Positions 8,702-47,753 are shown, counted from the first letter of the stretch. The stretch is 57,735 nt of DNA from a virus (IMGVR_UViG_3300010371_000007:1-57735), one strand, 5' to 3'. Numbers and translations: made by a program. The notes: a model not told the origin generated them from the letters alone.

Positions 8702-9238
8702 TCACTGCTCCGAGACCACGGGACCGATCACACGCGGCGAGGCGTTCCCGCCCGGCATGATGATCGTGATCAGTGGACCGGCGCCGGCTTGGCTGGCCTG
8801 CTGGTCCTTGTGGCGGGTGATGCCGGCGACGTCCGCCAGTGAGTCGAACGCGCCCTTGCGGATGTTCGGTGCGGTCTTGGGGTCGGCCATGATCGAGGCC
8901 ATGTCGAGCACGCCGCCCTCGTTGAGCGCCATGAGCGCCTTCAGGCGCACCTGATCGACAAGCCCGTTGGCGCTGTTCGCCTCGTCGCGCGCCTCCCCCA
9001 TGAGCTTCATGAAGTGGGGATGGAACTCCAGCACCTGCCACTGCTCGGGCGTCAGGCCCATGCCGATGGCCAGCTGCAGGGGTTGGTCCAGCCCGGCTAC
9101 AATGCGGCGCGCCAGCTCGCGAGCGTCGTACTGCAGGAATCGATCCGAGACGCCCACCGCGAGCGGAGAAGCGGCTGGAAGCGTGGTGGGACCCTCGATG
9201 GCCGCAGATGTCGGCGCAGGGGTGTTGGGAACGAACAT
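8702..9238 (-). CDS. Terminase small subunit candidate
   Basis: Directly upstream of terL, GAGGAG RBS, helical 178 aa with a beta-like C-terminus (PLITIIMP). Confidence 0.6.
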   Translation of the reverse strand: MFVPNTPAPTSAAIEGPTTLPAASPLAVGVSDRFLQYDARELARRIVAGLDQPLQLAIGMGLTPEQWQVLEFHPHFMKLMGEARDEANSANGLVDQVRLKALMALNEGGVLDMASIMADPKTAPNIRKGAFDSLADVAGITRHKDQQASQAGAGPLITIIMPGGNASPRVIGPVVSEQ

Positions 9239-9239
9239 G

Positions 9240-9270
9240 CTGACTCCTCGGGGTCGCGTCTGTATATTAC
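9240..9270. promoter_or_regulatory. Overlapping divergent promoter region between terS and portal
   Basis: Plus strand CTGACT-N17-TATATT; the same AT core reads TAATAT on the minus strand. Confidence 0.45.
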
Positions 9271-9295
9271 CCGGAACTCGGACGGAGACGACAAC

Positions 9296-11455
9296 GTGGC
9301 CACCCCCCTCCTGCGCGGCACCTTGGGTGTACCCGTCCCGGCAACGTCCGACGGCGGCGCCATGGGTGGTATGGGGTCGAGCGCTGACCCAACAGATACC
9401 ACGGCGCCATCGTCCGCCGCCAATGAATCGATCGCCTCGGGCCTCGCGAAATACATCCGCGACGCCTACGAGGCATCCCGCGACACGCGCAAGCTGCGCG
9501 GCGTGGACGATGACCTGCTTGCCGCCCTGCGCGCCTCGCGCGGCGAGTACGCCCCGGACAAGCTGAAGCAGATTCAGGACTCCGAGTCGACGGACGTGTT
9601 CCTGCGGCTGGCCGCCAACAAGATCCGAGGCGTCGCCGCGGCGTTGCGCGACGTCTACACATCCACGGATCGACCGTGGGGGATCGAGTCGACGGCCGAG
9701 CCGGAGATGCCGCTCGACACCGAGACGGAAAGCATGATCGCGCAACTGCTGCAGACCGAGGTTCGGCAGGCGCAGAACGACGCGGCAGCCAGCGGCCAGC
9801 CGATTCAGCTGACCCCGCAGATGCTGTTCGCACGCCGGCGCGACCTGCGCGACATGCTGTATCAGCACAAGATGCAGGACTCCACGCAGGCACTGCGACA
9901 GCGCGAGAACCAGCTGGACGACCTGCTGCAGCAGGGTGGGTTCTACTCTGCGCTTTGGTCGTTCCTGCAAGACATCGCCACATTCCCCTACGCCGTGCTG
10001 AAGGGACCGGTGGTGTACTACCGCAACCAGATGCACTGGGAAGGTGGGAAGGCCGTCGTCAAGAACGAGCCGACCATGACGTGGGAGCGGTGCTCACCGT
10101 TCGACGTCTACGTCGCGCCATGGTCCCAGTCGGCGCAGGACGGCTACATCGTCCATAAGCAACGGATCAACCGGCAGGCGTTGCAGTCCCTGATTGGGCT
10201 GCCGGCCTACGACACCGATGCGATCAAGTCGATCCTCGACCGTCAGCCGGAGTCGTTCAAGGACTGGTTCTCGTACACGGAGTGGGAGCGCTCGGTGCTG
10301 GAGCAGCGCGAGTCCGACCAGACGCAGAGCTACCGCACGGACGCCGTGGACCGGCCGTTCCCGATGCTGGAGTTCCATGGCAGTGTGAGCGGCGACCTGC
10401 TGATCGACTGGGGTATGGACGCGAAGGATGTCCCCGATGCCACGCAGGATCTGAACATCACGGGCTGGCTGATCGACGACACGGTGATCGGTGTGCGCAT
10501 CAACCCGCACCCGCTCGGCAACAAGCCGTTCTACATCGACTCGTTCGAGCGCGTGCCCGGCAGCGTGATCGGCCTCGGCGTCCCGAAGATGATCGAGGAC
10601 ATCTGCGACGCAGGCAACGCCACGTTCCGCGCGCTGATCAACAACATGGCGATCGCCAGCGGCCCGCAGGTGGCCGTGAACGAAGGTCGGCTCGACCCCG
10701 AGGAGAAAGACCTCACGATGTTCCCGTGGAAGGTCTGGCCATTCACGGATGACCCCATGGGCCAAGGCAGCCAGCCGCCGATCAATTTCTTCCAGCCCAG
10801 CTCGAACGCCAACGAGCTGATGGGTGTGTTGGAGAAGCTGATGCAGATGGCGGACATCTTCAGCGCCATGCCGCAGTTCATGCAGGGCGACCCGCAGGGG
10901 ATGTCGACGATCGGCCGCACATCGAGCGGCTTGTCGATGCTCATGGACGCCGCGAACCGCACCATGAAACAGGCGGTCACCAGCATCGACAAGAACGTGA
11001 TCGAGCCGGCCGTCATCGACCTGAACATCTACCTGTCGCTGACGCGGCCCGACCTCGTGGACGACGGCGACATCAACGTGGTGGCGAAGGGCGCCACGCA
11101 GCTCGTGCAGCGCGACCAGCTGCGCATGCGCCGCGCGCAGTTCCTGCAGGTCACGGCGAACCCCACCGACCTTGCGATCGTCGGCCCGCAGTTCCGCACG
11201 GAGCTGATCAAGGAAATGGCCAACGACCTGCAGCTGCCCACCGACTCCATCGGCCGCGGCGTGCCGCAGATGGGCGTGGCGCCCGGTCAGGGCGCACCCG
11301 GCCAGCCGCCGCAGCAACCCAACCCTCCGGCGCCGGGTGGCGCCATGGGTGGTCCGTCTGGCCCCGGCACCCCGCCGTCGGCGCAGGCGCCCAACGTCCC
11401 GGCGACGCCGGCACCGCAACCCGCCGCCGATGGCGCGGCACCACCGAAGGCATGA
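9296..11455 (+). CDS. Portal protein (719 aa)
   Basis: GTG start with GGAG RBS; size, position before scaffold and capsid, GRTSSGLSMLM motif, Pro/Gly/Gln-rich tail. Confidence 0.85.
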   Translation: MATPLLRGTLGVPVPATSDGGAMGGMGSSADPTDTTAPSSAANESIASGLAKYIRDAYEASRDTRKLRGVDDDLLAALRASRGEYAPDKLKQIQDSESTDVFLRLAANKIRGVAAALRDVYTSTDRPWGIESTAEPEMPLDTETESMIAQLLQTEVRQAQNDAAASGQPIQLTPQMLFARRRDLRDMLYQHKMQDSTQALRQRENQLDDLLQQGGFYSALWSFLQDIATFPYAVLKGPVVYYRNQMHWEGGKAVVKNEPTMTWERCSPFDVYVAPWSQSAQDGYIVHKQRINRQALQSLIGLPAYDTDAIKSILDRQPESFKDWFSYTEWERSVLEQRESDQTQSYRTDAVDRPFPMLEFHGSVSGDLLIDWGMDAKDVPDATQDLNITGWLIDDTVIGVRINPHPLGNKPFYIDSFERVPGSVIGLGVPKMIEDICDAGNATFRALINNMAIASGPQVAVNEGRLDPEEKDLTMFPWKVWPFTDDPMGQGSQPPINFFQPSSNANELMGVLEKLMQMADIFSAMPQFMQGDPQGMSTIGRTSSGLSMLMDAANRTMKQAVTSIDKNVIEPAVIDLNIYLSLTRPDLVDDGDINVVAKGATQLVQRDQLRMRRAQFLQVTANPTDLAIVGPQFRTELIKEMANDLQLPTDSIGRGVPQMGVAPGQGAPGQPPQQPNPPAPGGAMGGPSGPGTPPSAQAPNVPATPAPQPAADGAAPPKA

Positions 11456-12949: not shown

Positions 12950-13873
12950 ATGGCCGTCTATCCCATCGCCGCAGGGCAGCCGGATTACTCCGGTAATATC
13001 ATCCCGACCCTCTGGTCGCGCAAGCTGCTGGAGCGCTTCTACGACGCCGCTGTCGTCCCCGCGATCTCGACCACCGACTACCTCGGTGAGATCAAGAACA
13101 TGGGCGACACCGTGGTGATCAACCAAGTACCGGACATCACCATCACGCCGTACAAGATGGGTGACAACCTCACCAATCAGCGGCCGACGCAGACCACGCT
13201 GGACCTGATGATCGATCAGGGCAACTACTGGTCGTTCATCCTCGACGACGTCGCCGATGCGCAGGCCATGTTCAACATGACCGGCCCGTGGGCGGACAAC
13301 GCGTCCGAGAAGATGAAGATCACCGTCGATACCGAGGTGCTGGCGTTCCTGCGTACCCGCGCGGCCGCGGCGAACAAGGGCGCGACGGCGGGCCGTATCT
13401 CGGCCAACATCAACCTCGGTGCCACCGGTGCACCGCTCTCGCTGACGCCGGCCAACATCATCGACACGATCATCGATCTCGGTCTGGTGCTGGACGAGCA
13501 GAACATCCCCGAGACCGGCCGCAAGCTGGTCATGCCGATGTCCTACGCGGCGATGCTGAAAAAGTCCGACCTGCGCAACGCGTCGATCACCGGTGACACG
13601 GTGAGCGTGATGCGCAACGGCCTGCTCGGCACCATCGACCGGTTCGAGATCTACGGCTCGAACCTGATGCCGACGGCGGTGGAAGGCGCGGCCACCGCGT
13701 CGTACATCTACGCGATCCACCCGATGGCGCTGACCTTCGCCACCCAGCTGGTGAAGTCGGAGACCATCCGGTCGGAGAGCACGTTCGGCACGATCATGCG
13801 CGGCCTGCAGGTCTACGGCCGTGGCGTGCCGCAGCCGACGGCGCTCGCCACCGCGTATGCGGTGAAGGGCTAA
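12950..13873 (+). CDS. Major capsid protein
   Basis: IPTLWS-KLL...Y-GEIK-MGDTV-I pattern, GAGGAG RBS, strong codon bias, followed by a terminator. Confidence 0.9.
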   Translation: MAVYPIAAGQPDYSGNIIPTLWSRKLLERFYDAAVVPAISTTDYLGEIKNMGDTVVINQVPDITITPYKMGDNLTNQRPTQTTLDLMIDQGNYWSFILDDVADAQAMFNMTGPWADNASEKMKITVDTEVLAFLRTRAAAANKGATAGRISANINLGATGAPLSLTPANIIDTIIDLGLVLDEQNIPETGRKLVMPMSYAAMLKKSDLRNASITGDTVSVMRNGLLGTIDRFEIYGSNLMPTAVEGAATASYIYAIHPMALTFATQLVKSETIRSESTFGTIMRGLQVYGRGVPQPTALATAYAVKG

Positions 13874-15312: not shown

Positions 15313-16413
15313 ATGGCCAAGTACCTCTACGCCAACAATGCGCGCAGCTCGTTGCTCGGCAACGTCGCACCGACGGACCCCGCCATCACGCTGCCCAACG
15401 GCGACGGCGCGCTGTTTCCGATGCCGGCGGCTGGCAAGACGTTTCTTTTGACGATCGAGGACATCACAGGCAATATCGAGATCGTCGAGTGCACCGCGCG
15501 TACGGCGGACACGCTGACCGTGACTCGCGGACGCGAGGGAACACTCGCTCGCGCGTTTTCTGCCTCGACGCTGGTCGAGATGCGGATCACTGCAGGCATG
15601 CTCGGCAACATCGACTGGACGGCGTTCGCTGGCACCGCGAATGGTGTCGCGACGCTCGACGGCGACGCAAAGCTCCCGATCGCGCAGTTCGACACGCCGC
15701 TGCAGACGTTCGGCGATGCGCGCTGGAATGCAAAGCTCAACTTCACGCCCGTGCAGCAGGGTGGTGGCGCAGGCCAGCTGACGAACAAGGTTTACGTGGG
15801 GTGGAATGGCGCGGACGTAACGATGCAGGTCGACGCCACGGGGATGGGCGCTATCGCATCGAAAGCGTGGGTCGCGACCACGACCGTTGCGAACGCGAAC
15901 AAGCTCACCAACGCGCGAAACATCGCACTGACCGGGACGGTCACAGGCAGTGCGAACTTCGACGGCTCTGGCAACATAGCGCTCGCGACGTCGATCGGTG
16001 CCGCAGCGCTTTCGACGGCGATGACCAACGGGCTCGATGCGGCGCTCGCCGCACGCCCGCAGAACAACGCGACGAATGCTGCCAGCATCACGTTCACTGG
16101 CACGATCACGGGCGGCTCTGTGATCGACAGTTCCGACATGCGGATCAAGGAAAACATCGACAGCATGGCGCTCGACGACGCCGTGGGCATCGTCATGCAG
16201 TCGCGCCCGGTGCGCTACCACAACCTGCAAACGGACCGCGCTGACTTCGGGTTCGTTGCGGACGAGCAGGCGGACGTCACCCCCGAGCTGATCTTCGAGG
16301 GTCCCGGCGACAAGAAACTCAAGGGTATGGCTTACCAGCGGATGACGTCACCGATCACGCGCGTCTTGCAGGCGCTTATCGAAGACGCACGCTCGCGCGG
16401 AGTGCAGATCTGA
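15313..16413 (+). CDS. Tail spike/fibre with C-terminal intramolecular chaperone (peptidase S74-like)
   Basis: EIV-CT-R...LTV-RG-EGT N-terminus; SDMRIKENI...GFVADE chaperone signature. Confidence 0.75.
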   Translation: MAKYLYANNARSSLLGNVAPTDPAITLPNGDGALFPMPAAGKTFLLTIEDITGNIEIVECTARTADTLTVTRGREGTLARAFSASTLVEMRITAGMLGNIDWTAFAGTANGVATLDGDAKLPIAQFDTPLQTFGDARWNAKLNFTPVQQGGGAGQLTNKVYVGWNGADVTMQVDATGMGAIASKAWVATTTVANANKLTNARNIALTGTVTGSANFDGSGNIALATSIGAAALSTAMTNGLDAALAARPQNNATNAASITFTGTITGGSVIDSSDMRIKENIDSMALDDAVGIVMQSRPVRYHNLQTDRADFGFVADEQADVTPELIFEGPGDKKLKGMAYQRMTSPITRVLQALIEDARSRGVQI

Positions 16414-16903: not shown

Positions 16904-18679
16904 ATGACGATCCTGCGCATCTCTGGCTTCGGCGGCATCATCCCGCGACTGGGAAGCCGACTGCTGCCTGACAACGCTGCGCAGTACGCGCTCAATGCGC
17001 AGCTGTTCTCTGGCGAGCTTCGCAGCTGGAGCCAGCTGAAGCTGCTCGCGACGTATGCGTCGCACCCCAACCTGCAGGACGTTTTTCACTACCGCCACCC
17101 GAACGACCCGACGCTGACGAACTACTACATCCCGTTCGACCAGCGCACGGACGTGGTGAAGGCGCCGATCATCAACGATGCGTACAACCGGCTCTACTGG
17201 ACGGATGGTATCAAGTTCACCATCACGACGATGGCCGATGTCGAGGCGGGCACGCCGGGCCAACCGGTCGGCCTACCCCCACCGACGTTCGGGACGACGC
17301 CTGCGATCGCCACCGCGGGTGGTACATCGGCGAATGCCGTTACGCGCGTGTACACGTTCATCCTCGTGTCGAAGTACGGCGAGGAAGGCCCGGCCAGCGA
17401 CACGTCCACGATCACTGTGTCGGGCAACAGTGACGGCACGTGGACGATCACCAACGCAAACACGCTGGTGGCGCCCACGAACCCGAACATCATCAAGCTG
17501 CGGATGTACCGCACGATCGCGTCGCTCACCTCGAACACCGTCACATATCGTGAAGTGGTGGAGTGGGACATCGGCAGCGTGCCTGCCAGCTACTCGGATG
17601 TGATGTCAGAGACCACGCTGGCGACGCAGCCCGCCATGCAGTCGCTGCAATGGGATGCGCCGCCGGCCGACCTGAAGGGTCTGTGTGCTGGCCCGAACGG
17701 CATGCTGTCGGCGTTCAAGGGTCGCACGGTGTATTTCAGCGTGCCGTGGTTCCCGCACGCATGGCCCGACAGCTACCAGATCGCGGTGCCTGAAGACATC
17801 GTGGCCATCGGGTGGATCGGTTCGCTGCTGGTGATCGGCACGACCGGACGCCCAGCCGTGGTGTCAGGCACGAGCCCGACGTCGCTCTCCACACAGAACT
17901 TCGGCGAAGTCATCCCTTGCCTGTCGCAGGACGGCTTCGTGTGCACGTCGACCGCTGCGTTCTACCCGTCGCTGGATGGCTTGATCTCGCTCTCGGCCGA
18001 CGGCGTGGTGAACAACAGCAACGCGTTCGCCACGCGCAAGGACTGGCTGGCGCGGTTCCCGCCAGTGTCGACGTCCGGCGCGATCTACCAGAGCCGGTAC
18101 TTCGGGTTCTACTCGTCACAGCTGGGCTACTCGCTCGGTTTCGACGACGCGACGACGGGCCTCACGGACCTGCAGGTCAACGGCGTGAAGCGGATCAAGA
18201 ACTCCGCCGTGGACAATAGTGCGCACGTCATCATCGGTGACCAGCTGTTCCAGTGGGATGGTGCGGTGGACAGCCCGCTGGTGTTCGTGTGGCGGTCGAA
18301 ACCGTTCATGGTGCCGAAGCCGGTGAACATGGGCGTACTGCAGGTGCGCGGCGATTTCCTCGCGTTCGGCAACGCACCGGCGCCGCCGGCACCGCCGCCG
18401 TTCGACCCATCGGGCTACGCCATCGACGACAAGGGCATCAACGAGGGCGGCATCAACGGGCTGGGTGTCCCACAGCAGTCGCTGGCCTCGGACTCGATCG
18501 GCGTGAAGGTCTACGCGGACGACACGCTCGTGTGGGTCGGTGTGGTGAACTCGGAGGAGCCGGTTAACCTGCCGTCGGGCTTCAAGGCGGTAAAGTGGGA
18601 AGTCGAGGTATCCGGCACCCTCTCAGTGTTCTCGGTAGTGCTGGCCGGTACGCGGAAAGAACTGGAGAACGTCCCATGA
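16904..18679 (+). CDS. Tail nozzle / DNA-stabilisation protein (tubular B-like)
   Basis: F-G-IPR...LP-NAAQ-A-N start, beta-rich, W-SK-F motif near the C-terminus. Confidence 0.7.
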   Translation: MTILRISGFGGIIPRLGSRLLPDNAAQYALNAQLFSGELRSWSQLKLLATYASHPNLQDVFHYRHPNDPTLTNYYIPFDQRTDVVKAPIINDAYNRLYWTDGIKFTITTMADVEAGTPGQPVGLPPPTFGTTPAIATAGGTSANAVTRVYTFILVSKYGEEGPASDTSTITVSGNSDGTWTITNANTLVAPTNPNIIKLRMYRTIASLTSNTVTYREVVEWDIGSVPASYSDVMSETTLATQPAMQSLQWDAPPADLKGLCAGPNGMLSAFKGRTVYFSVPWFPHAWPDSYQIAVPEDIVAIGWIGSLLVIGTTGRPAVVSGTSPTSLSTQNFGEVIPCLSQDGFVCTSTAAFYPSLDGLISLSADGVVNNSNAFATRKDWLARFPPVSTSGAIYQSRYFGFYSSQLGYSLGFDDATTGLTDLQVNGVKRIKNSAVDNSAHVIIGDQLFQWDGAVDSPLVFVWRSKPFMVPKPVNMGVLQVRGDFLAFGNAPAPPAPPPFDPSGYAIDDKGINEGGINGLGVPQQSLASDSIGVKVYADDTLVWVGVVNSEEPVNLPSGFKAVKWEVEVSGTLSVFSVVLAGTRKELENVP

Positions 18680-19261: not shown

Positions 19262-20692
19262 GTGGGAAAAAAGAGCACGCCTAAGCCGCCCGACCTGACC
19301 CCGCTCAGCAACGCGCAGCTGGAGATCTCCAAGCAGCAGCTGGCGCAGGCGCAGCAGCAGATGAACATGTCCGCGGAGCAGTTCAACCGCTACATGGACC
19401 TGTCCAACCAAGAGCTGCAGCAGAGTCAGGCGCAGTACGACACGCAGATGGGTCTGCAGAGCCGCGCGCTGGATCAGGCGGACGCGGCCAACGCCATCTC
19501 GCGCCAAGTCGCTGACAAGCAGATGTCGGCCATGGACCAGTCCATGCAGTACGCGCAGGAGGACCGCGCGCGCTACACGAACACGATCCTGCCGCTGCAA
19601 GACCAATACATCAAGGAAGCGCAGGCGTACTCGTCGCCTGAGAAGCAAGCTGCTGCTGCGGCTCAGGCGCTGGCCGACAACCAGACGCAGATCGAGGCGC
19701 AGCGCAACAACCAGATGTCCCAGCTCGCGTCGATGGGTATCGACCCGTCGCAGGTGATGTCGTCGTCGCTGTCGAGTCAGCTCGGTGTCGCCGGCGCGGC
19801 GCAGGGCGCGCTCAACGCCAACACGGCGCGCGAGAACACGATCCAGACCGGGTACAACATGCTCGGCAATGCGATCAACATGGGCAACAACCTGCCCTCG
19901 CAGGCGCTGGGAGCACTGGGCACGGGCACGCAGGCAGGCAACAGCGCCGCCGGCAACATGCAGTCGGGCGCGAACGTCTACGCCAACGCGTCGCAGATCG
20001 GCGCCACGGCGTCCGGCATCCGCCAGAGTTCGCTCGGCCTGTCCTCACAGCTGACCGGCTCGCCGATGTCGTGGGCGTCGTTGGGTAACCAGTCTTACGG
20101 TGGCGCCAGCAACGGCATCATGAACGCATCGAGCATCCAGAACCAGATGTTCCAGAACCAGATGTCGCAGCAGGCGATGAAAAACCAGCAGTCGCAGTCC
20201 ACCATGAGCGCGATCGGCGGCATGGCCGGTATGGCCGCGATGTTCATGGCGGAAGGTGGCGTGGTCGATCCTGAACAGCTGCCTCCGATCATCGGGAGCA
20301 CTGGAGCGCCCGTAATCGCACAACCGAACACGGACGTCACGCTCAGCGACGCCGCGCCGGCGATCGGCGACGTCAATCATGTGTACGCGGCACGTCCCGC
20401 CATGTTGTCCGACCGCGACCGTATGGGGATGTCGATCGCCGCAGGCATGCTGGACCGCGGCGCCAATTCGCCGGCGTACACGGACGCCAATATGCAGACG
20501 CCGTGGCTGCGCCCGCAGATGCGTGCGGAGGGTGGCGCCATGGGCCGCGTGATGCCGAGTATGGCCGCGCGCGACAAGATCCTGACCTTTACGACGCCGG
20601 GCGAGTACGTGGTGCCTGCTGACGTCGTTCGCCAGCTGGGTATCCAGCACTTCGAGAAGCTGGTCCATAAATACCATCGACCGGGAGCGTGA
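19262..20692 (+). CDS. Internal virion / DNA ejection protein 1
   Basis: MGKKSTPKPPD start, Gln/Ala/Gly-rich helices, two AEGG motifs and GEYVVPADVV. Confidence 0.75.
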   Translation: MGKKSTPKPPDLTPLSNAQLEISKQQLAQAQQQMNMSAEQFNRYMDLSNQELQQSQAQYDTQMGLQSRALDQADAANAISRQVADKQMSAMDQSMQYAQEDRARYTNTILPLQDQYIKEAQAYSSPEKQAAAAAQALADNQTQIEAQRNNQMSQLASMGIDPSQVMSSSLSSQLGVAGAAQGALNANTARENTIQTGYNMLGNAINMGNNLPSQALGALGTGTQAGNSAAGNMQSGANVYANASQIGATASGIRQSSLGLSSQLTGSPMSWASLGNQSYGGASNGIMNASSIQNQMFQNQMSQQAMKNQQSQSTMSAIGGMAGMAAMFMAEGGVVDPEQLPPIIGSTGAPVIAQPNTDVTLSDAAPAIGDVNHVYAARPAMLSDRDRMGMSIAAGMLDRGANSPAYTDANMQTPWLRPQMRAEGGAMGRVMPSMAARDKILTFTTPGEYVVPADVVRQLGIQHFEKLVHKYHRPGA

Positions 20693-20693
20693 C

Positions 20694-22647
20694 ATGTCGG
20701 CATCTAGCGGGTTCATGACGGGTCTGCTGCAGGGCGTTGCTGCCGGCAAGGTGCTCGGCGATCGTTTCGCAATGTCTCGGTCCAACAGCCGCATGCAGGC
20801 GGTGCAGGACGCCATCGACGCGGGCAAGTACACCAACGATGCCGCTGGGCAGGCGCAGCTCCAGACCGACCTGCGCAACGCGCAAGCGCCGTTGTCGAAC
20901 CGCGGCATGGACGATACCTACGGTGAAGACCAGTATTCGCGCCTGCTCGACCTAGAAGCTCCGCGCCGCGCAGCAGGCGGGGTCCAGTGTCCCTGCGTCG
21001 GCGCCGGGCGCCGACGGCGCGTCCTCGCTGCCGCCGGATTACAGCGGCGCACTGAGTGGCTACGCGACGAACCTGCGCGGACTCGGCGACCTGCAGGGCG
21101 GCATGCAGGCAGACCAGATGTCGGGCCAGATCACAGCAGGTCGCAACGCGATCAACCAGACGGGCCAGATGTCGCCGACCGGCACGCAGCCGGGTGAGGT
21201 GGATCAGGCGCGACTGGGGGCGGGCGTGGCGGCGAACAATGCCGCCATGGGCGATGCCAGTGGCTCGGCGCAGTGGGGTGACCGTGCGAAGCAGCAGGGC
21301 GATACCCAGCTGCAGGGAATGCTCGGTCGCGCGCTGACCATGGCGCAGAACCCTTCGCTGGGTGGCATGCAGGGCGCCGCACCGTTCCTCAATTCCGCTG
21401 CGCAGATGATGGGCTACGGCCAAGTGCAGTATTCGCCGAGTCAGGACTCGCTGACGGTGATGTCGCGCGACAACCAGCCACTGGCGACGATCAACCAGCA
21501 GAACATCCAGCAGTTCGCGGAAACGCTCGGCAACCAACCTGAGAACCTGCTCGGCAACCTGCGTGCGCTGCAGACCCAGCAGTATCAGGCCGCTACGAAG
21601 CAGCGCACGGACGACTACAACGCAGGCCGCTACACGCTGCTCGGGCTCGCCAAGAGCGCGCCGAGCGATGCCATGCTCAATCAGGCGGAACGTATCGCCG
21701 TGTCGAGCAGCAACGCGGCGGAGAAAACGAACTGGCAGACCATCTCGACGACGCCAGTCACCGACAAGGACGGCGCGCCGACGGGCGTGGTGCGCTCGAT
21801 CGTGAAGCCGCCCGGTAGCCCGGCGCTGATCCTCACCGTGCTGCCCGAAGACCCCTCCAAGCCGGCGCAGCCAGCGTACCGGCTCCAGCGGCAGGACGGC
21901 TCCGATGTGTCCGGCAACGAGCTAGGCCAGTACGCTGCGTCCGCACAGATTGTGGCGCAGGCGGCGCGCGACCGCGCCATGCTCGACAACCTGAAGCTCA
22001 ATCAGGCTCGGTTCCAGCAGGGGCGCGCGAACGTCTACGACGTGCTGGGTTCGCTCGGCTCAGGTGCCTTCGGTGGGTCAATGCCACAAGGTGGCCAGCT
22101 GCCACCTCCGCATGCCATTACGAGCGCACAGGTGCAGGTCGAGTCTGGCGGCAACCAGAACGCGGTCTCACCCAAGGGCGCCGTTGGCGCCATGCAGCTG
22201 ATGCCCGACACGGCGCGCGAGCAGGAACAGAAGCTCGGCTTGGCGCCGGGCTCAACAGACACGTCGGCCGCGGCGAACACGAAGGCAGGCGAAGCGTACC
22301 GCCAGCAGCTGGTGGCGCGGTACACGAAACAGTCGGGCAACGAGCTCACCGGCCTCGCGCAGGGTCTGATCGCCTACAACATGGGTCCGGGCAAGACGGA
22401 CAAGTGGCTGGCCGCCGGCGCTGACCCGGCGAAGCTGCCGAAGGAAACCCGCGACTACGTGACCAAGGTTTTCTCGAAACTGGGCCTCCCCGGAATGACC
22501 GCAGCGCGCGGCAGTTCTGGCATCATGGGCGCCAGCGCGGAGCCGAAGCTGCCGAAGGTGAAGCTCAACGCTGCGGGGACCGCCCCGCTCACCTCGGCGC
22601 CCACGGCGAAACTCTCCAACGGGCCGGCAAACAAGTACCTCCTCTAA
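20694..22647 (+). CDS. Internal virion protein 2 with lytic transglycosylase (SLT) domain; +1 frame break near 20955
   Basis: VESGG...SPKGAVGAMQLMP...AYNMGPG motifs; the biased reading passes from ORF 20694..21197 into the frame of 21103..22647. Confidence 0.75.
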
Positions 22648-22656
22648 GGACGATCC

Positions 22657-25600
22657 ATGGCCGACTTCACCGACCCGATCACGCAGGCACTCCAGCAGCG
22701 CCTTGCGTCCGGCCCGACGATCTCGGACAACGGCACGCCCCGAGGCGACGCGCAGCTCCAGCAGAACCTCGCCGATGTCACTGCCTCGGCGTCGAATGGC
22801 GCGGTGGGTGGTGCGATGGGCGCCATGGGTGGCGCCGCGGCACAGGCGCCGGAAGCGACGTTCTACGCGTACAACCCGCACACGGACACCCTGCTCGTCA
22901 ACGGCGAGGCCGTCCCCCACGATTTCCAAGCGTGGTCGCATGTCGCGTCGGTGAGTCCAGACCAGCTGCGGCCGATGTCGGTCAGCGCCGTGTCCGAGGA
23001 TGGCTACATCCCACTGACGCAAGGGCGCTTGCAGGAGTTTCTGCAGCAGACGGACCAGAACGCGCAGTCGCATTTCACCGGCGACACGCTGAGCCATCTC
23101 TGGACGGGCACCGTGCGCATGGCGGGCGGCCTCGCACGTGAGCTTCCTCGTGTACTGGCGGGTACACCCGATGGGCGCATGGCGGCGTTCGCAGGTGACG
23201 CGCTGGCTAGCGGGTTGGGTGTAGACCCGAGCAAGTACGGCGGCTTGGCTGCCGCTGCGCAGGACGTGGGCCGGAACATTTCCGACACGAATGCCGCCTA
23301 TGCCCAACAGTGGGATGCCGACCGCCGCGCGGGCCAGACGCTGGCCGAGCAGGCGTACAGCGACTCGACGTTCAGCGCGCACCCACTGCGCGCCACAGGC
23401 AATCTGATATCGAACCAGCTGGCGGAGAGCATCCCCGCGATCGGCGCGTTCGCGTTCAACCCTGCGGCCGGCGCGCTCGCGATCGGTGGGCAGGGCGCAC
23501 AGATGAACGCCGAGAACGCGGGTCAGCGCTTCGACGCGTGGCGACAGGCGCACCCCGAGCAGTTCTCGGCGACCAACCCTGTCTATGCGCAGCTGCGTGC
23601 GCAAGGTCTGAGTGACGAGCAGACCGTCGCCGCGATGCGCCAGCAGTCGATGGACGTCGCCGGTGATGTCGGCGGTGCCCTGTCGCTGGCCACGGCGCCG
23701 CTGGCAGGACGCATCCCGCTGGCCGCGATCGGCCGTGCGTCTGCGCTGGCGCCCGCCATGGGCGGATCGGGCATCGGGTCGTTCATCGGCCGACGGCTCG
23801 CCATGAGCGGACTGACGGCAGCCGAGGGTGCCGGTATCGGCGCGGTGTCGAACATTCCGGGTCAGGTGGCAGCGGACGCCACCAGCGGTCGCGGTGTCCA
23901 AGGCGTGGGAGACTACACGCACGGCCTCGGTGAGATGGCGCTGCTCGGTGGCCTCATGGGCAGCGTGACGCGCGCGCCGGTGCGCAACGCCGCCGCTGCA
24001 TCGGATATCGCCGCGGCCACGGGTGCGATCCCCGGCAAGTCCCCGGTGAGTGACGCCAACCCGGCGCCCACCGGCATGCCGCAGATGCCGCTCCCCGACG
24101 TGCAAGGCCCGGCGCCCGCTGGCGCACCGCCCGTCCCCGGCTCCCCCGCGCGGCCGATGCCGCAGCCGGGCGAGATGGGCGATCTGCTCGGTGGGCAGCC
24201 GCGCCCAGCACCACAGCCCTCCGCTCCGGAGCCCGGCGCGGCGACACCGCCGGCGTTCAACCCGAACCAGACCGAACTCCCCGGGGTGCCGCCGGTCGGT
24301 CCGCAGCTGCCGCAGCGCGCCGGGCCGTCCCTGATCCAGCAGCGCGCAGCTGAACAGGCTGCCGCGCAGAACGCTCCGGCGCCCGCCGAGCCAGCCGGCG
24401 CGCTCCCCGCGCCCGGCATCACGCCGGCGCAAACGGAAGCCGCGGCCAGCGCGCACCAGTCGCTCCAGATGGTCCAGAACCTGCTGGACTCCGGGCAGTT
24501 CAACAAGCGCACGAAGACGGGCAAGGCGACGATCGACCAGCTGACGGCCGAACGCGACCGGCTGCAGGCCGTCGTGGACCAGCACCAGAACGACATACTG
24601 GCCGACCAGATCGCGCAGGCGCGCGCGGCGCGACCACCACAGCCGCCCGCTTCGTTCGTCGAGGACGCGAACGGCCAGCGCGGTCTGCCCGGTGTCGAGC
24701 CCGTGTCCACCCCGGACGGCGCGCCGCCGGCGAACATGGAGCCGGCACCGATCGGTCAGGACCAGCCGATGTCGCCGCAGGAGGCGCAGGCGCGCCTCGC
24801 CATGCAGCGCGCGCGCAACCCGGAGAACCGGCCGCCGCAGGAGGACTTGTTCCCGCGCCAGCTGAAGCAGGGGCTGCAGGCGGTCATCGACAAGAGCCGT
24901 CAGAGCGTGTCCGAGTCGACGCCAGAGCCTGCGGTGGACTTGGCGGCGCAGATGGCCGCGCTCAAGTCCGGCGCGCGGGACGCGGTGTTCGTCGCTGCAG
25001 GCAACGAGGCGCAGGCACCGAAGGTAGCCGGCAAGGCGGTCCGAAAGGTCGTGCGTCCGGAGGGGACGCTGTACACCACGAACGCAGCGAAAGCCAAAGC
25101 CTACAGGGAGGCGCCGGCGCTCAATGACGACATTCTCGCCCGCATGCAGGACTTGCCACAGTCGAAAGCTGACGCTGTACAGCGAGGCGACACGACTGTC
25201 ACTCAGGCGCTGGACGCGAATGGCGCCGTGGTCAAAGAGGCACTGGGGAAGGGAAACACGGCTGCGGTCGCGGAAGCGGCACCACCCGGTGGCGCAGTGC
25301 GCCAGTTGCCGGCCGAGGCGGCACAAGCGCGTCGCGCGGAGCTGAACGCTCGATTCGACCGCGGCGAGGCGATGTCGAACGCCGACCTGCGAGCTGCTGT
25401 CACACACGCAAGCGGAGCGCGACACGGGCGCGCCGGGCCAGCAGCCGTTGGAGGGCATGCTGAACGGCACGGCAGGCCCGCGCGCGGCGGCAGAGGCTGG
25501 TCACAAGGGTTTCCTGCATGCCGACATGAACGGCCTCAAGGCCATCAACGACACGGCGGGTCACGCGGCCGGCGACGCGCTGCTGCAGGCGTTCGGCTCG

Positions 25601-28600
25601 CTGTACCGTGACGTGGCGCGCCGGCACGGTGGCACGCCGTGGCTCGCCGGCGGCGACGAGTTCGTCTCGTCGTACCCGACGCGCGCGGCTGCGCAGAAGG
25701 CGCACGCAGAGCTGCAGGCGCTGGCGAAAAACCACGTCGTCGATTTCCAAGCCAACGACGGCACCACTCACCGAATCGAAGGCGTCGGGTTTGCCGGCGG
25801 GGTAGGGAAAAATGTCCGAGAAGCCGATGCAGCCTCTGAAGCCGCCAAGCGTGCCCACTACGCCAGCTCCGGCACCGAACGACGCGTCGGGTCAGCCCCC
25901 GGCCGTCGTGCACAAGAACCTCACCCTGCAACAGATCGCCGAGCTGATGAAGGCGCAGGGCGTGCAGCCGGGAAGCGTGCGCGTGTTCCCGAGCCCGCGC
26001 CGCGTGAAGTAAAGCCCACCCGCGCGGAACAGCTGAAGGCCAAGACGGCGGCGAAGCGTGAGGCCAAGGCCGACGCTTCGCGCGTCGAGTCTGTCATCGG
26101 TAAAAAAAAAGTCACGCCCGAGGAGCTAAGCGCCCGGACCCGCGCAAGCGACGCTGACGTCGCCGCGGCGACCAAGACGCTGCAGGAGGACGTGGCCGCG
26201 AACCACCCGCAGCACGTCGACGCGTTCGCCGCACAGGCGCATGAGGGCGCCGGGCGCCAGCCCGAGTCCCCGCTGCTGTCGGTGCCGCTGACCGAGCGCG
26301 AGCTGGGCACCGTGGGCGAGCGCGTGCAGGCGACGGCACAGGCGGAGCACGCGCAGGTCAAGGACGGCTCGTGGTCGCCGGCCAAGTCGGTGGTCGCGCG
26401 CGTGCTCGACGCCGCCGGCATGACGCTGGAGGGGTCGAAGCTCAAGGCCGCGATCCAGTCGTTCGCCGAGGCCACGCCGAAGCAGCTGAAGGCGTTCATG
26501 GAGATGGTCGCGCCGCGGCTCGCCGACTCGACGCTTGCCAAGGGCATTGCGCGCGGGATGGACAACGTGCGTGCGGCAGCCAAGGACACGAACAGCGACA
26601 TCCGCGAGATGGCGCTCGGCACGCCGAAGGCACCGAAGCCTGACAAGGCGCCCGAGAAAAACGACGCCTTCAGCGGCGGCCGCGTCACCATGTACGGCCA
26701 CGACGTGCCGGCCGCGGCCGGTCGCGCCGTGCGCCACTGGGTGGGTACGTTCGAGAAGACGTCCGGCCAGTTCCTCCCCGACGAGCTGCACGTGATGTCG
26801 CCGGCGGAGGCCAGCGCACGCTACGGGCAGGACTTCGGCAGTGAGGGGTTCTCCGGTGCGGCCAAGAACCCCGAGACGGGCGCCATGGAGCACGTGATCG
26901 CGGTCGACTGGAAGCGCGTCGGGGATGGTCCGGCGGCCGTGGAGGCGCTGGCGCACGAGTTCGCCCACACCGCCATGGACCACGTGTTCGACAAGCTCCC
27001 CAAGGTGGATCAGGACGCCGTGCGCAGTGCGTACAACGACTGGCTCAAGGCGCAGGGGCGCGGCACGCCGACAGAGACGCTGCTGAACCGCCTGCCGCCA
27101 GCGCTGGCGGACCTCGCGCGCGAGGTGGGGTCGAAGCCCGAGCGCGCCTATGCGGAGAGCTGGCACGAGTGGCTGGCCGACCAGACGGCGAAGTGGATGC
27201 TCACCGATGCCCGGCCGCGCACGGCGGTGGAGCGGTTTTTCGGCCGTCTGGCCGACGCATTCCAGAAGCTCTACGCCAGCGTGACCGGCCGCGGTCGCCC
27301 CACCGACGCCGTGGCGGCGATGATGGACAACCTCGTCGAGCGGTCGCAGAACCTGCGACAGCAGGATGCCACGGTGCGCGCCAACGAGATGACTTATGGC
27401 CGTGAGGCGGCCACGCCGCCCCCGGCGCCCGAGCTGGCGCGCCAGAAGATCGACGTGCGTGCGGTGCAGGCGCGGGTCGACCGCACGCTGCAGGGCGCCA
27501 AGGCGCTCGGCGACGACGTGGGCAAGATGCTCGGGGGCGACACCCATGCCGTGCTCGACCGCCTCAACCGTTCGTGGTCGCACCTCGCGGAGGGGAAGGC
27601 CGGCGACCTCATGCGGAACATCTTCCATGGTGTCATGTCCATGCGCGACATCGTGGACCGATACCGCAAGCGGGGGGAGTTCGGCGAGGGGCTGGTCGAC
27701 TGGGACAACGCCATGCGCGCCGCCGAGAAGCACTCGCGCGAGGTGCAGCAGTCGGCGAACATCGCCAGCGAGCAGGCGCACCGCCTGAGCGCCCCGGTGC
27801 GCACCGCCCTGAACACGCTGATGTACAAGACCACGACGTGGGGTATCCACCCGGACGAGGCGTTCGGCACGGGCCGCAACGCGCACCTCGCCGACGCCGA
27901 CAAGACCGTCGAGGGGAACAACCGAGCGCGCTACAACGAGGTGCGCCAGTTGTGGGACCAGATGCGCAGTATCCCCGGCGACCCGCAGCGGATCTTCAAG
28001 CAGCTGGCTGGCGCGCTGCGCACGATCCAGCACGAGACGTTCACCGCGCGCCACGCGAACATCGATCGCCTCCAGCTGTCCGAAGCGGCGAAGGCGGAGA
28101 TGCACGCCCTGCTCGACGCGCAGGAAGCCCGGATGGTCAAGGGTCCGTATTTCCCGCTGACGCGACAGGGCAACTACATCACCTCGGTAACGATGCCGCA
28201 GACCCGCGTGGGCGAGTACCCGACCAAGGCGGAAGCGAAGCGCATCGCGGACCAGCAGAAGTCGATCAACCCGCACGCGGACGTGACGGTCTCAAAGACA
28301 CCGGACGACACGTGGGATGTGCATGTGGGCGAGAAGGCGGTTTACTTCCACCCCACCCTGCGCGACGCCAAGGAAGCCCAAGCGGGCATCTTGCGTGAGG
28401 TGAAGGAAGCGTGGGCGCACATGGGCGTCGACTACGACATGGCGCAGACCGAGCTGGGGCGCTCGATGGTCAAGGGTCCGTTCCACACGCAGGACTTCTA
28501 TCGCAAGATGGAGGTTCCGAACTTCAACAAGTTCACCCACGAGCTGAACGACCTGTACGCCAAGGGCCAGATCGACCCCGAGGTGTATAAGACATTCAGC

Positions 28601-30508
28601 GAGATGGTGATCGAGGCGCTGCCTGAGACCAGCACGCGCAAGTCGGGCCTCGCGCGGCAGAACATCCGCGGCGCCGATCAGGACATGCTGGGCGGCTACG
28701 TGCGTCACGTCGCCGGCGCCGCGCACGCCTACGGCAAGACGAAGGTCGCGCGCGACATCAACGACGCGTGGGCGCTGATGCACAAGCATGCAGATAGCGA
28801 GCCCGAGCTGAACACCGTCATGAACAGCCTGCGCAACCGGCAGGAAGTGCTGGCGAAGCGCATGGCGCGCAACTGGGAGAACACCACGGCGAACACGCTA
28901 CAGGACATGTCCAGCATGATGTCGCTCGGCATGTCACCGGCGTTCATGGTGCAGCAGGCGCTGCAGCCGATCGTGGTCACGCTGCCGGTACTCGCTGCGC
29001 GCAACATGGAGCGGGGCGGCAAGGCGGTCGGCTACGGCCACGCCATGCAGTACCTGAAGGACGCCTACCAAGGCGCCGTGCCGTTCTTCACCAAGCGCGG
29101 CGGTGAGCAGTTCATGGCCGAAGCGCGCCGCATGCTCGGCACCTACGCGGGCGAGGGGAAGACGCTGCAGGAGTCGGCCAACGACATGATCTCCACGTTC
29201 GGCAAGAACGCCAACGAGCGCGAGATGCTGGAGTACATGCACGCCCGCGGCACGCTCGACTTCGCGTTCCTGAACGCCGTCGCCGATGCTGCGTCGTCCT
29301 CGAAGTTTGGTGATAAGACAAAGGCCGCGCTGCGTATCGCGATGGCGCTCCCCCAGCAGATCGAGGCAATGAACCGCATGGTCTCCGGGCTCGCCGCGTA
29401 CCGCCTCGCGCGTGACCTGCGCGGATTCGACCACGCGCAGGCGATGCACGAGGCGGACACGGTGGTCTCGCAGACGCACGGCGACTACAGCCGCTACAAC
29501 CGCCCCAGCGCGTTCAACCGGCCGTGGGTCGGCATGGCGCTGCAGTTCAAGATGTATACCCAGTTCGTCTACTCGCTGCTGGTGCGCAACTTCGCGAACA
29601 TGATGGACCGCAGCCTGACGAAGGACGAGCGCACGCAGGCGGCGCGCACGCTCGGTTACGTGATCGGCAGCCACGCCACGTTCGGCGGCCTGACCGGCAT
29701 CGGTCCCGTCGCCGCTGCGGCGAAGGTGGGGCTGGGCGGCCTGATGTACGCGGCGGCCGGCGCCGGCGTGATCGACCCGAAAAAGCGCGACCAGACGGTC
29801 GGTGACTGGATCGACGCGAACTTCAACCAGTGGGCGGATGACTCGCTCGGCAAGGGCGCCGGCGCGTACCTGTCGAAGATCGCGGCCTACGGCCTGCCCG
29901 CGGCGGCGAACATCAACATCGCCAACAAGATCGGCATCCCCGACCTGACCGACTCGCGCTACATGGGCAAGGCGGACAAGGCCAGCGACACGATCGGCCA
30001 GCAGGTGCTCGCGATGCTCGGCCCGGTCTACGCGAACGCGGTGCGCGTCGCCGATGGCGCGCAGCAGCTCACGAAGGGGAACCTCGGGGCGGCGGGCAAG
30101 CTGATGCTGCCGGCGGCACCGCGCGCCATCCTGAACGCGATCACGGAGCAGCAGGACGGCGTGGCCACGTCGAGCGGCAACGTGATCCGACCGGCGGCGG
30201 ACCTGTCGCCCTACCGGACGTTCCTGCGCGCCATGGGGCTGCAGGACGCCGACACATCGCGCATCTACGACCAGCGCAGCGCGCGGTACGCCGCGAAGGA
30301 CCGGATCACCAGCGAGCGTACCGACCTGTTGCAGGAGTACGCGCAGGCGAAGGGCGATGACCGCCACGACGTCGCGCTGAAGATTGCCGCGTTCAACAAG
30401 GGCCGCGCGCCGGAGTTCCAGATCTCGCCGGCAACGCTGCAGCGCCAGCTCCAGCGTCAGCCGATGTCGAAGACGGACCGCGCCGCAGCACGCGCGATCG
30501 GACAGTAG
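22657..30508 (+). CDS. Giant polyvalent internal virion protein (about 2,600 aa if joined): GGDEF + HExxH zincin + PLxRFG-like region; +1 frame break near 25390
   Basis: ORFs 22657..25611 and 25448..30508 overlap in different frames; DMNGLK-INDTAGHAAGD, GGDEF (25649-25663), HEFAH (26954-26968), YFPLTRQGNY (about 28148-28177). Confidence 0.75.
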
Positions 30509-30546
30509 AAAAGGGAAACGCCCGACAGGGGGCTGCCGGGCGTTTC
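30509..30546 (-). terminator. Intrinsic terminator where the two arms converge
   Basis: GAAACGCCCG...CGGGCGTTTC stem (30515-30546) followed by CCTTTT on the minus strand. Confidence 0.7.
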
Positions 30547-30652
30547 GGGGGTGCGATGGGTGCGGGCCATCGCGGGTTGGGGTCCCCTCACGGACACCAA
30601 GGCCAGCATATAGCCGCCTTGGTGCAATGCGCAAGGGGGTGTTGTCTGGCGT

Positions 30653-30834
30653 TCAGGCGAGCAGAACGCCGTTCGCGCACTCCTTCGCTGCGGCTTTCAG
30701 TGTCGCCGCCAGCGCAGGACGCCGGGCAGCAGCGGCTTCACTTTCTGAATCGTGTGGCCTGCCGCGCGCAGGTGCTGCTCGAAGACCGGCAGCTTCCACT
30801 CGTCGAGCATGATGGCGGCTTTCTTGACGGCCAT
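30653..30834 (-). CDS. Small hypothetical protein (MAVKKAAIMLDEWKLPVF...), possibly frameshifted near 30715
   Basis: GAGGAG RBS; in-frame stop at 30697, but the adjacent frame continues ALAATLKAAAKEC to 30653. Confidence 0.5.
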
Positions 30835-30844
30835 GGGGATCTCC

Positions 30845-31069
30845 TCAGAAGAAACTGGGCTTCGCCACGCCGCGCGTGAGCGCCATGAGACCAGTCTGCA
30901 GGTCTGTCGCACCGATGCTAACCCAACGCTGGTCGACTTCCGAGTTCGCTCGCAGCTGAGCGACCAGTTCGCCGAGCACGACGCCTTGCGCCTTGATCTG
31001 GTTCATGAGGTCGATCTCGGTCTGCGATAGCTCGCGGTAGCCTTTTATCTGACGATGCTGATTGTCCAT
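30845..31069 (-). CDS. acb2: Anti-CBASS cyclic-oligonucleotide sponge, Acb2 family
   Basis: MDNQH..IKGYR.LSQ.EID.MN..K..G and RW..IG.TD.QTG.MA..R..A.P.F match the Acb2 signature as I recall it from Pseudomonas phage Acb2. Confidence 0.85.
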   Translation of the reverse strand: MDNQHRQIKGYRELSQTEIDLMNQIKAQGVVLGELVAQLRANSEVDQRWVSIGATDLQTGLMALTRGVAKPSFF

Positions 31070-46445: not shown

Positions 46446-46639
46446 TAGTAGGGTAGTTCGGTGTAGCGCAGCGTGTACGTGTACCCCGGCTTCTCGCGTT
46501 TTCTAAGCGCGGCGTGTAGATCAACCCTGCGGTCCGCGTAGATACGAACCACGTGCGGCTGCGTTACTGCGGGATGCCAGTACTCGCCGTGGAACACGTA
46601 ACAGATAAGGCGATCAGCAGATTTTGATGTTTCGTCCAT
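46445..46639 (-). CDS. Small hypothetical protein
   Basis: Fills the gap between two genes; start uncertain. Confidence 0.4.
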   Translation of the reverse strand: MDETSKSADRLICYVFHGEYWHPAVTQPHVVRIYADRRVDLHAALRKREKPGYTYTLRYTELPY

Positions 46640-47753
46640 AGGGCGCCTGCACCTCCGTCGTCATCGCCCAGATCACCGGGCGTTTCGGTCCCTTCGTGAA
46701 AGCCGTATAGCCATCCGTGAGTACGGCGATGACGTCGCACTTATCATCGACGGCGTTCTTGATGCCACACTCCATGTCGGTGCCACCGCCACCGGGTACG
46801 GGCTTCGACAGCATCTGGCGCAGCTGCTGACCCGACTTGATCGTGTCCACGCGGTGGACCTTCGCATCGGTCCAGTACACGCGGATCTCGCGCGGCTTTG
46901 CGTCCGACAGGATCGCACCCATGTGCGAGCCGAACAGCTGCAGCAACTCGTCGCCGATACTGCCGCTGGTGTCGACCACCACGCCGACCGGGCCGCAGGC
47001 ATACCCGGTGCGACCGGGCATCACCACGCCGCGCGACATCATGTGCCGGTTGAGGCGGCGCCACGTCGTCGTGTCGTGGCCGCGCATGGCGCTGATGACG
47101 GCTTGCCGCAGCCTCGCCCATGGCGAGTGCTTGGGTCGGATGATGCTGCCGATCAGGCGCTCGATACCGGCCGGCACGTGGCCGAGCGCCTTCGCGGTCT
47201 CGAACGCCGACTGCACGTCCTGCGGCTGGATCGCGTTCTGTTTCTGGTTGCCCGCGGCGCCATCGGAGATGTGCGTGTCGTGGCTCTGCTGGGCGCCACC
47301 CTTGCCGCCACCGCCCTTCGGCGGGTTGGACGGCAACGCCTCGTAGATCTCCGCCGGCGTCATGGTGTGTGGGTACGCCGCGTCCCAGCACCAGCCCGCA
47401 CCGATCGTGCCGATGCCGTTCTGTTTGATCAGATCGTTGATGACGTAATCGGCGGCGCGGTTGTACTTGTCCTGTTCGTAGGGCTTGCCGTCCGGGCCGA
47501 TGCCCGACTCGTGGTACATGTCCATCTCGACGAGGTGCGCGAACATGCCGTGCATGACCTCGTGCGTGATGGCGGCGATGCACTCGTCGTCACTGATCGA
47601 CTCGATGAATGCCGGGTTGTAGTACATCGTGTCGAGCGAGACGGCGAGCGTCGGGAACCGATCGGTCGGCTCGATCTTGAACCGCGTGAGCAGCTGACCG
47701 AAGAACGGCTGCGTGAGCATCACCGCGGTGTATGCGTCATCGAAGATAGCCAT
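46614..47753 (-). CDS. HExxH metallopeptidase-like + vWA (MIDAS) protein, DUF2201-type
   Basis: HEVMH, N.A.D..IN, VVVDTSGSI, GGGTD, LTDG. Confidence 0.85.
   Translation of the reverse strand: MAIFDDAYTAVMLTQPFFGQLLTRFKIEPTDRFPTLAVSLDTMYYNPAFIESISDDECIAAITHEVMHGMFAHLVEMDMYHESGIGPDGKPYEQDKYNRAADYVINDLIKQNGIGTIGAGWCWDAAYPHTMTPAEIYEALPSNPPKGGGGKGGAQQSHDTHISDGAAGNQKQNAIQPQDVQSAFETAKALGHVPAGIERLIGSIIRPKHSPWARLRQAVISAMRGHDTTTWRRLNRHMMSRGVVMPGRTGYACGPVGVVVDTSGSIGDELLQLFGSHMGAILSDAKPREIRVYWTDAKVHRVDTIKSGQQLRQMLSKPVPGGGGTDMECGIKNAVDDKCDVIAVLTDGYTAFTKGPKRPVIWAMTTEVQAPYGRNIKIC

Follow-up and report, generated by a model that had tools for sequence, protein, structure and literature searches.

The window, by which we mean the whole stretch of DNA that was analysed, is an entire IMG/VR virus record of 57,735 bp (IMGVR_UViG_3300010371_000007) with direct terminal repeats, a G+C content of about 65% and a CheckV completeness estimate of 100%. 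The last gene of its virion arm is a giant gene on the + strand, and the encoded protein carries an internal GGDEF domain. An earlier note on this DNA had proposed that the phage may inject this domain at infection as a feedback-free synthase of cyclic di-GMP (c-di-GMP). The giant gene is deposited in two pieces, and it contains the following features, including a short open reading frame (ORF) that overlaps the domain:

22657-30508, + strand: giant polyvalent/PLxRFG-type gene, 2,617 codons once a gap of 2 nucleotides (nt) is allowed for
25388/25389, + strand: the 2-nt gap, a frame break in this record only (Logan contigs)
25430-25870, + strand: GGDEF domain of a compact subtype, beginning with a degraded wide-turn motif; Pfam core 25496-25855
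25649-25663, + strand: GGDEF signature motif; the two residues before it are Leu-Ala, in place of the Arg/His-x of relatives
25812-26012, + strand: 66-codon ORF, +1 relative to the giant frame, spanning the last part of the GGDEF domain and the linker behind it (third-position G+C content, conservation)
26954-26968, + strand: HExxH motif (region 26603-27397) of a candidate zincin-type metallopeptidase module (alignment)
27590-28153, + strand: LPD39, large polyvalent-protein-associated domain 39 (Pfam PF18858)
28571-30478, + strand: PLxRFG C-terminal domain (NCBIfam 'tail-700', NF032893), about 640 residues

The giant gene and its GGDEF domain

In the deposited record the giant gene reads as two ORFs, 22657-25611 and 25448-30508, within frames that are open from 22648 to 25611 (frame 1) and from 25346 to 30508 (frame 2). 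The first start codon in frame 2, which is the frame of the GGDEF domain, is a TTG at 25448 that already lies inside the domain, and the database protein call P0004 of 1,683 amino acids (aa) begins three codons beyond it, with the domain truncated. When Logan contigs of four runs were aligned to 24900-26100, the dinucleotide GC was found inserted behind 25388 in all three runs that cover the site (X1, X2 and X6), the fourth run, X4, being without cover there. A 39.9-kb contig of X1, the probable source sample, has no other difference over 1,201 bases, and the contigs of X2 and X6 differ from the window at 44 and 43 positions. This evidence consists of assembled contigs and not of raw reads; the extra depth at 25515-25596 stems from other organisms, whose GGDEF genes contribute short contigs there, and is uninformative on the phage. 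As the two bases restore a continuous ORF of 2,617 codons, 22657-30508 is one gene, and the frame break is a defect or minor variant of the record. Relatives with a single ORF of 2,622, 2,617 and 2,576 aa, at 65% identity, span both ORFs of the window. The deposited record carries a 2-nt error which splits the giant gene into two called ORFs. A position of the break at the (CA)3 run near 25405 was rejected, as the aligned contigs place it at 25388. A second frameshift near 25990, suspected from a dip in the G+C content of third codon positions (GC3), was dropped because the giant frame stays open through the linker in the relatives, and the overlapping ORF in the +1 frame explains the dip better.

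The continuous frame changes the place of the domain in its protein. Rather than standing at the start of a 1,686-aa protein, it is internal, at about residues 926-1072 of 2,617. Of the residues quoted in the earlier note, the ERD part lies upstream of any ATG, GTG or TTG of that frame; it had been read across the frame break of the record.

Window 25430-25870 encodes a genuine GGDEF domain, and the residues that had been quoted for it are found in frame 2 of the + strand where they were said to be. Two of the checks that had been proposed, a profile search and a structure prediction, bear this out. Pfam GGDEF (PF00990) matches the protein with E 1e-9 and 38.8 bits against a cut-off of 23.8, and a six-frame Pfam search places the domain at 25496-25855 with 43.1 bits and E 1.3e-12. 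A phmmer search against the sequences of the PDB yields 30 different sequences of diguanylate cyclases at E<=0.01, with 1.2e-6 as the best value. The AlphaFold2 model of window:25391-25900, computed from a 13-row alignment, has a mean predicted local distance difference test score (pLDDT) of 84.7 and a predicted template modelling score (pTM) of 0.80. A Foldseek search with this model yields 97 PDB chains at E<=0.001, headed exclusively by GGDEF domains of diguanylate cyclases (SadC, DosC, TpbB, DgcB, PleD and WspR). Nine proteins of a viral structure library match it at E<=0.001, the best being A0A516M277; among the nine are stand-alone phage cyclases as well as part of a long, unnamed viral protein.

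The active site was compared in a MAFFT alignment of the window and three clade relatives with the 148 nearest GGDEF domains, which were chosen by their likeness to the window query. Positions are given in PleD numbering, which a review (PMC7186502) supports in part, and the residues are assigned the roles of their PleD equivalents. The window and all three clade relatives retain the equivalents of the metal Asp D327, K332, N335, D344, the GGDEF motif itself and K442. The nearest domains keep D327 in 146 of 148 cases, K332 in 141, N335 in 148, D344 in 145 and K442 in 140, and the third and fourth residues of the GGDEF motif in 147 and 148. The proposed conservation of metal-binding, guanine-reading and GGDEF residues is thus confirmed. 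Hypr synthases of cyclic GMP-AMP carry a Ser in place of the guanine-reading Asp, and the window has the Asp. The guanine-reading role of N335 and D344 is described in the same review (PMC7186502). The inhibitory RxxD site (I-site), which ends five residues before GGDEF and had been reported missing, is indeed absent: the window reads RHGG at this position, and RxxD occurs in none of the four clade members, in 7 of 38 long relatives and in 34 of 110 short ones.

Nine related viral loci could be retrieved by an alignment-based scan, a single-protein scan of viral contigs for relatives having returned nothing. As to the survey of PLxRFG-type homologues that had been suggested, the GGDEF domain is present in two of the nine records, and in two of the four that are at least 90% complete. 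In P0008 (49% identical, 2,421 aa) the flanks are conserved, and the GGDEF block of about 170 residues is missing together with the linker; the block is an insertion gained by one subclade. A natural comparison is offered by related giant proteins that share a gene order and differ in having or lacking the module.

The module itself has many relatives. A HMMER search with the 153-residue segment in 1.84 billion representative proteins gave 7,728 matches at E<=0.001, 46 at E<=1e-10 and two at E<=1e-30. Among the 148 matches listed outside the clade, 38 are proteins of at least 1,400 aa, and all eight of these long proteins that were scanned with Pfam combine GGDEF with polyvalent domains (LPD38, ART-PolyVal, LPD22, LPD39, RadC or InPase). 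In P0070 a pyrophosphatase domain (779-919) stands directly before the GGDEF domain (980-1116), and a pyrophosphatase beside a cyclase that releases pyrophosphate argues that the module is catalytic in those giant metagenomic proteins. The short metagenomic homologues (165-280 aa) share the compact layout of the window, in which both the helix behind the wide turn and the loop ahead of the last helix are short, and we therefore assign the module to a compact subtype of GGDEF domains, frequent among giant phage-type proteins. The same subtype is paired with a polyvalent-type inorganic pyrophosphatase directly upstream or an ART domain downstream in P0052, P0060, P0070 and P0090.

The GGDEF module is under strong purifying selection. 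Among the strain differences listed (40, with 45 more outside the listing), the 21 located in 25391-25860 are without exception synonymous in the giant frame, as are 35 of the 40 altogether. The GGDEF segment is 73-75% identical to that of the relatives, compared with 65% for the whole protein.

The giant protein and the virion-gene arm

The first 910 residues or so of the giant protein (22657-25387) have no match in Pfam, PHROG or NCBIfam. They contain Gly/Ala-rich hydrophobic stretches and a long low-complexity region rich in Pro, Ala and Gln, and could hold a packaging or ejection signal or serve in membrane insertion. The GGDEF domain is directly followed by a linker rich in Arg, Gln and Ala. 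Further downstream, LPD39 is matched with 27.0 bits, exactly at the cut-off of 27, and E 4.2e-6, and precomputed annotation records it also for P0006, P0008, P0009 and P0012. The PLxRFG domain at the C-terminus is matched with E 5.6e-64 and 216.8 bits against a cut-off of 100 (residues 1061-1696 of the translation of window:25391-30505). Two further profiles, phrog_37402 and phrog_10089 ('DarB-like antirestriction'), match the C-terminal part as well, the latter with the C-terminal tail of that profile only, and tblastn finds 22-27% identity of this part to PLxRFG or DarB-like proteins of 22 phage records. Judged by its domains, the giant protein is a polyvalent protein of PLxRFG type: it is large, has LPD39, is encoded in the virion arm and contains one firmly identified enzymatic domain, GGDEF. 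The antirestriction proteins of the P1 DarB type combine methyltransferase and helicase modules; in the window protein Pfam finds GGDEF and LPD39 only.

PLxRFG proteins of phages of about 60 kb (Itty13, SopranoGao, LASTA, Parlo, PBC5 and POI1126) resemble the window protein over the C-terminal 640 residues or so. Their N-terminal two-thirds are unrelated to it, and none of them was matched by tblastn of the GGDEF segment against the phage collection.

The virion arm occupies about 9 kb to 30.5 kb on the + strand, according to PHROG and Pfam matches, and contains upstream of the giant gene:

9014-11455, + strand: portal-like protein
12950-13873, + strand: major head protein
15313-16413, + strand: tail fibre
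16904-18679, + strand: internal virion protein (phrog_511)
19262-20692, + strand: virion structural protein
21103-22647, + strand: SLT (lytic transglycosylase) protein of 514 aa, directly upstream of the giant gene (Pfam PF01464)

The SLT protein is matched by its Pfam profile with E 9.1e-15 and 54.7 bits, and by PHROG profiles for a lytic tail protein and for an internal virion protein with an endolysin domain; its position is the same in the related records L002, L003 and L004. The giant gene is the last of the arm and follows it directly, as had been stated before and as domain annotation and the gene order of the relatives agree. Immediately after the giant gene, on the opposite strand, come genes for a primase/helicase, a helicase and a DNA polymerase. 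The order of capsid, fibre, internal virion protein, SLT protein, giant gene and convergent replication genes is kept in L002, L003 and L004. In L005-L007 the order from internal virion proteins over the giant gene to the convergent replication genes is likewise kept, and tblastn found no SLT or capsid match there. No gene of the size of a tape-measure gene was seen in the window.

By the internal virion protein (31-33% identity), the closest cultured relatives are Bcep22-like Burkholderia podophages, Pseudomonas phage Itty13, and Ralstonia and Rhizobium phages, and we infer from these relatives that the phage is podovirus-like. A megablast search with 22000-31000 against the phage collection gave no match. 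Metagenome runs from soil and rhizosphere contain near-identical or related sequence. When prokaryote genomes were scanned, one per species, no prophage relative or host came up, and the single match, in a metagenome-assembled genome, was a chance GGDEF hit.

Proposed virion delivery and cyclase activity

GGDEF domains in polyvalent proteins of phages and prophages are not new. Iyer et al. (2017, J Bacteriol) predicted computationally that they are delivered at invasion; that paper calls such GGDEFs "not very widespread", proposes that they interfere with host nucleotide responses after delivery, and puts at up to 35% the share of polyvalent proteins that are encoded by phages and probably packaged (PMC5512222). 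The design has thus been known from computation since then and is experimentally untested; in agreement with the earlier note, which knew of no characterised virion-delivered diguanylate cyclase, we found no experimental test of one in the part of the literature that was accessible, subscription journals and supplements lying outside its coverage. The GGDEF polyvalent proteins of Iyer et al. resemble the window protein in being giant and multidomain, in their late-gene context and in having GGDEF beside unrelated modules and LPD domains, and they are predicted to exploit or perturb cyclic-nucleotide signalling. The protein named there as an example is from a Firmicute prophage and has SNF2, methylase, peptidase and ART domains, whereas the window encodes a PLxRFG/LPD39 protein of a high-GC soil phage, in which the GGDEF domain is a clade-specific insertion that has lost conserved basic residues. 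To the 2017 prediction the locus adds the natural comparison of related giant proteins, the purifying selection on the module and a clade with a drifted active site.

The reading that we prefer, and to which we give a probability of roughly 0.4, is that the giant protein would share the fate of other giant proteins at this position, namely packaging into the capsid and ejection together with the DNA; that the ejected GGDEF module would then bind GTP-Mg; and that two paired copies would make c-di-GMP, without product feedback because the RxxD site is absent, so that host second-messenger levels would change before phage genes are expressed. If a working synthase is injected in this way, motility, pili, matrix or nucleotide-based immunity of the host could be reset within seconds of entry.

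Packaging is likely, judging from the position of the gene and the family of the protein. The homologue of the internal virion protein is annotated as 'virion-associated' in Bcep22 and BcepIL02, and the layout of Bcep22 is alike, with the 'virion-associated' gp74 followed by the 4,602-aa gp75. In JC1 the 4,515-aa giant protein gp69 at the same position was found by mass spectrometry in CsCl-purified virions (PMC9144972). Both giant proteins, termed 'DarB-like', are encoded as in the window by the last gene of the virion arm after a virion protein of roughly 500 aa, and other virion proteins of Bcep22-like phages are homologous to those of the window (31-33% identity). The link to giant proteins verified by mass spectrometry is by position only. 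Unlike the window protein, in which Pfam finds nothing of the kind, gp75 has matches to an SNF2-type helicase and to methylases.

Several results weigh against the preferred reading. Packaging itself is a deduction from position and family, and direct comparison with gp75 reveals no significant similarity: the best local BLASTP match of the window protein to it has an E of 0.5 and is not significant, a profile built from five homologues gives no significant match to it either, and gp75 has no match to NF032893. The TM-scores of the model to solved GGDEF domains reach 0.55-0.67 only. No dimerising element was identified in the giant protein, and cyclisation requires two GGDEF domains; nor did we find an EAL or PilZ partner encoded in the phage, which is uncultured and for which the scan gave no host or prophage relative. 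The most serious points concern the substrate contacts. The residue two before GGDEF, at the position of R366, is Leu in all four clade members and never Leu in the 148 nearest domains, which have Arg (127), His (20) or Ser (1). The replacement by Leu that had been noted earlier is thus real, but it is not minor, as Arg or His stands there in 147 of 148 domains. Of the DxLTGLxNRR motif of the wide turn, the clade keeps L, G and N and has replaced D, T and both R, which are kept in 128, 135, 112 and 85 of the nearest domains, respectively, and the position of PleD R446 is occupied by Tyr, in a part where the alignment is less certain. R366 is listed with F330, F331, D344 and K442 among the PleD contacts to GTP-alpha-S in the review (PMC7186502). 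Our searches found no literature combining GGDEF with Arg366. The metal- and base-binding core is thus intact, with several phosphate or guanine contacts gone.

With cellular cyclases (PleD, WspR, SadC, DgcZ and DosC) the window domain shares the fold and the metal, guanine and GGDEF residues, but it has no sensor or receiver domain, no RxxD, Leu at R366, a degraded DxLTGLxNRR motif, a shorter helix between the wide turn and strand 1 and a shorter loop before the last helix. Because of the Leu at the R366 position and the degraded wide-turn motif, cyclase activity is uncertain, and an active c-di-GMP synthase is just one among the readings in play, with chances somewhat below even. GTP turnover in this clade, with the Arg/His before GGDEF and the N-terminal basic residues lost, is the weakest step of the proposed mechanism. 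A clade in which the active site has drifted at normally invariant substrate contacts is at the same time a useful test of enzyme versus sensor.

The lost basic residues are the starting point of another explanation, in which the degenerate GGDEF domain binds GTP-Mg or a cyclic dinucleotide, makes no c-di-GMP and takes the role of a nucleotide sensor, a switch or a scaffold for dimerisation in the ejected protein; it could, for example, signal the arrival in a GTP-rich cytoplasm and trigger other modules. The substitutions before GGDEF, in the wide turn and at R446 are confined to this clade, as this explanation would have it, and one of them concerns the GTP contact R366 in PleD (PMC7186502). 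The purifying selection is neutral here, showing that some function is kept without telling which. All metal-binding and GGDEF-hairpin residues are, however, kept in the four clade members, and these are residues which pure binding domains usually let decay. In addition, the wider polyvalent GGDEFs keep a full active site, in one case beside a pyrophosphatase, and point to catalysis as the ancestral role. We regard a sensor or scaffold of this kind as somewhat less likely than the preferred reading. The module might instead make another product, a mixed or linear dinucleotide that jams or mimics the nucleotide-based immune signalling of the host, as altered substrate contacts could shift the positioning of the second substrate and as interference with host nucleotide responses was suggested by Iyer et al. 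(PMC5512222). The guanine-reading Asp, in place of the Ser of Hypr enzymes, and N335 are kept, and this makes such a product improbable to us.

Two further explanations accept or bypass the chemistry and dispute the setting. An active cyclase could work late in the producing cell and not after ejection, the protein being unpackaged or processed first. The gene belongs to the late virion arm, so the enzyme would be in the cytoplasm before lysis anyway, and the tie to packaged proteins is positional, as said above. However, a PLxRFG domain and LPD39 typify proteins for which packaging is predicted, and the gene follows the SLT internal protein, as those of ejection proteins do; late action thus appears distinctly unlikely, if slightly less so than a different product. 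Finally, the giant gene could be a pseudogene, broken by the frame change at 25388, with the GGDEF domain not expressed as read. The two overlapping ORFs of the deposit, and the TTG start at 25448 that cuts off the beginning of the domain, would fit this view. It is highly improbable in the light of the two bases that restore one ORF in all three covering runs, including the probable source sample, of the single ORF in the relatives, and of the listed substitutions within the GGDEF domain downstream of the break, which are all synonymous.

Overlapping frame and further observations

The 66-codon ORF at 25812-26012 stands out by its codon composition. Among 255 sliding windows of the 7.8-kb giant ORF, this is the only stretch with a main-frame GC3 below 0.6 (0.42, with a mean of 0.88), and the +1 frame over the same stretch has a GC3 of 0.90-0.92. 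The small ORF is kept with the same start context and stop in L002 (13158-13355) and L004 (13020-13217), where it likewise coincides with the lowest GC3 of the giant frame (0.35). Conservation is higher in the small frame over its second half and in the giant frame over its first third. Of five strain differences listed in it, two lie in the first part and leave the giant protein unchanged, and three lie in the second part and alter it, two of these three being silent in the small frame. No homologue was found among called proteins of 36-116 aa, and there was no NCBIfam match. On the evidence of three genomes, the ORF may be a live overlapping gene, or it may be the fossil of a partner gene that arrived with the GGDEF cassette.

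A more far-reaching version of the preferred reading includes this ORF. A podovirus-like subclade of soil phages would have captured a GGDEF cassette, consisting of the cyclase and its 66-codon partner in the +1 frame, and would deliver with its DNA a feedback-free and re-tuned nucleotide cyclase, whose altered pocket (Leu for Arg/His, lost NRR) gives a product or kinetics unlike those of host cyclases. We consider this scenario unlikely as a whole.

In the region of the HExxH motif, which is helical, H, E and H are invariant in all five aligned homologues, and the AlphaFold2 model has a pLDDT of 71.0. Foldseek finds no match to this model in the PDB at E<=0.001, the best being an M30 Zn-peptidase at E 0.29, and Pfam MPTase-PolyVal is absent at the region. 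The region may form a zincin-type peptidase with a part in processing the giant protein, a suggestion which is unconfirmed by structure or profile searches.

Stand-alone GGDEF proteins of other phages (Pseudomonas phage MP1412 gp43, Bordetella phage CN1 and Bacillus phages SP-15 and G) are small compact domains like that of the window, but they are encoded by separate small genes and are not part of a giant protein of the virion arm. In the cultured Yuavirus MP1412 (L001, 7935-8405), the GGDEF protein has 156 aa and its gene lies among early genes beside a KlcA anti-restriction gene. MP1412 could serve as a tractable system for the function of phage GGDEF proteins.

The replication arm of the window encodes a 379-aa HNH endonuclease (46614-47753, - strand), which is matched by phrog_1314 with E 2.7e-73 and is probably a homing endonuclease.

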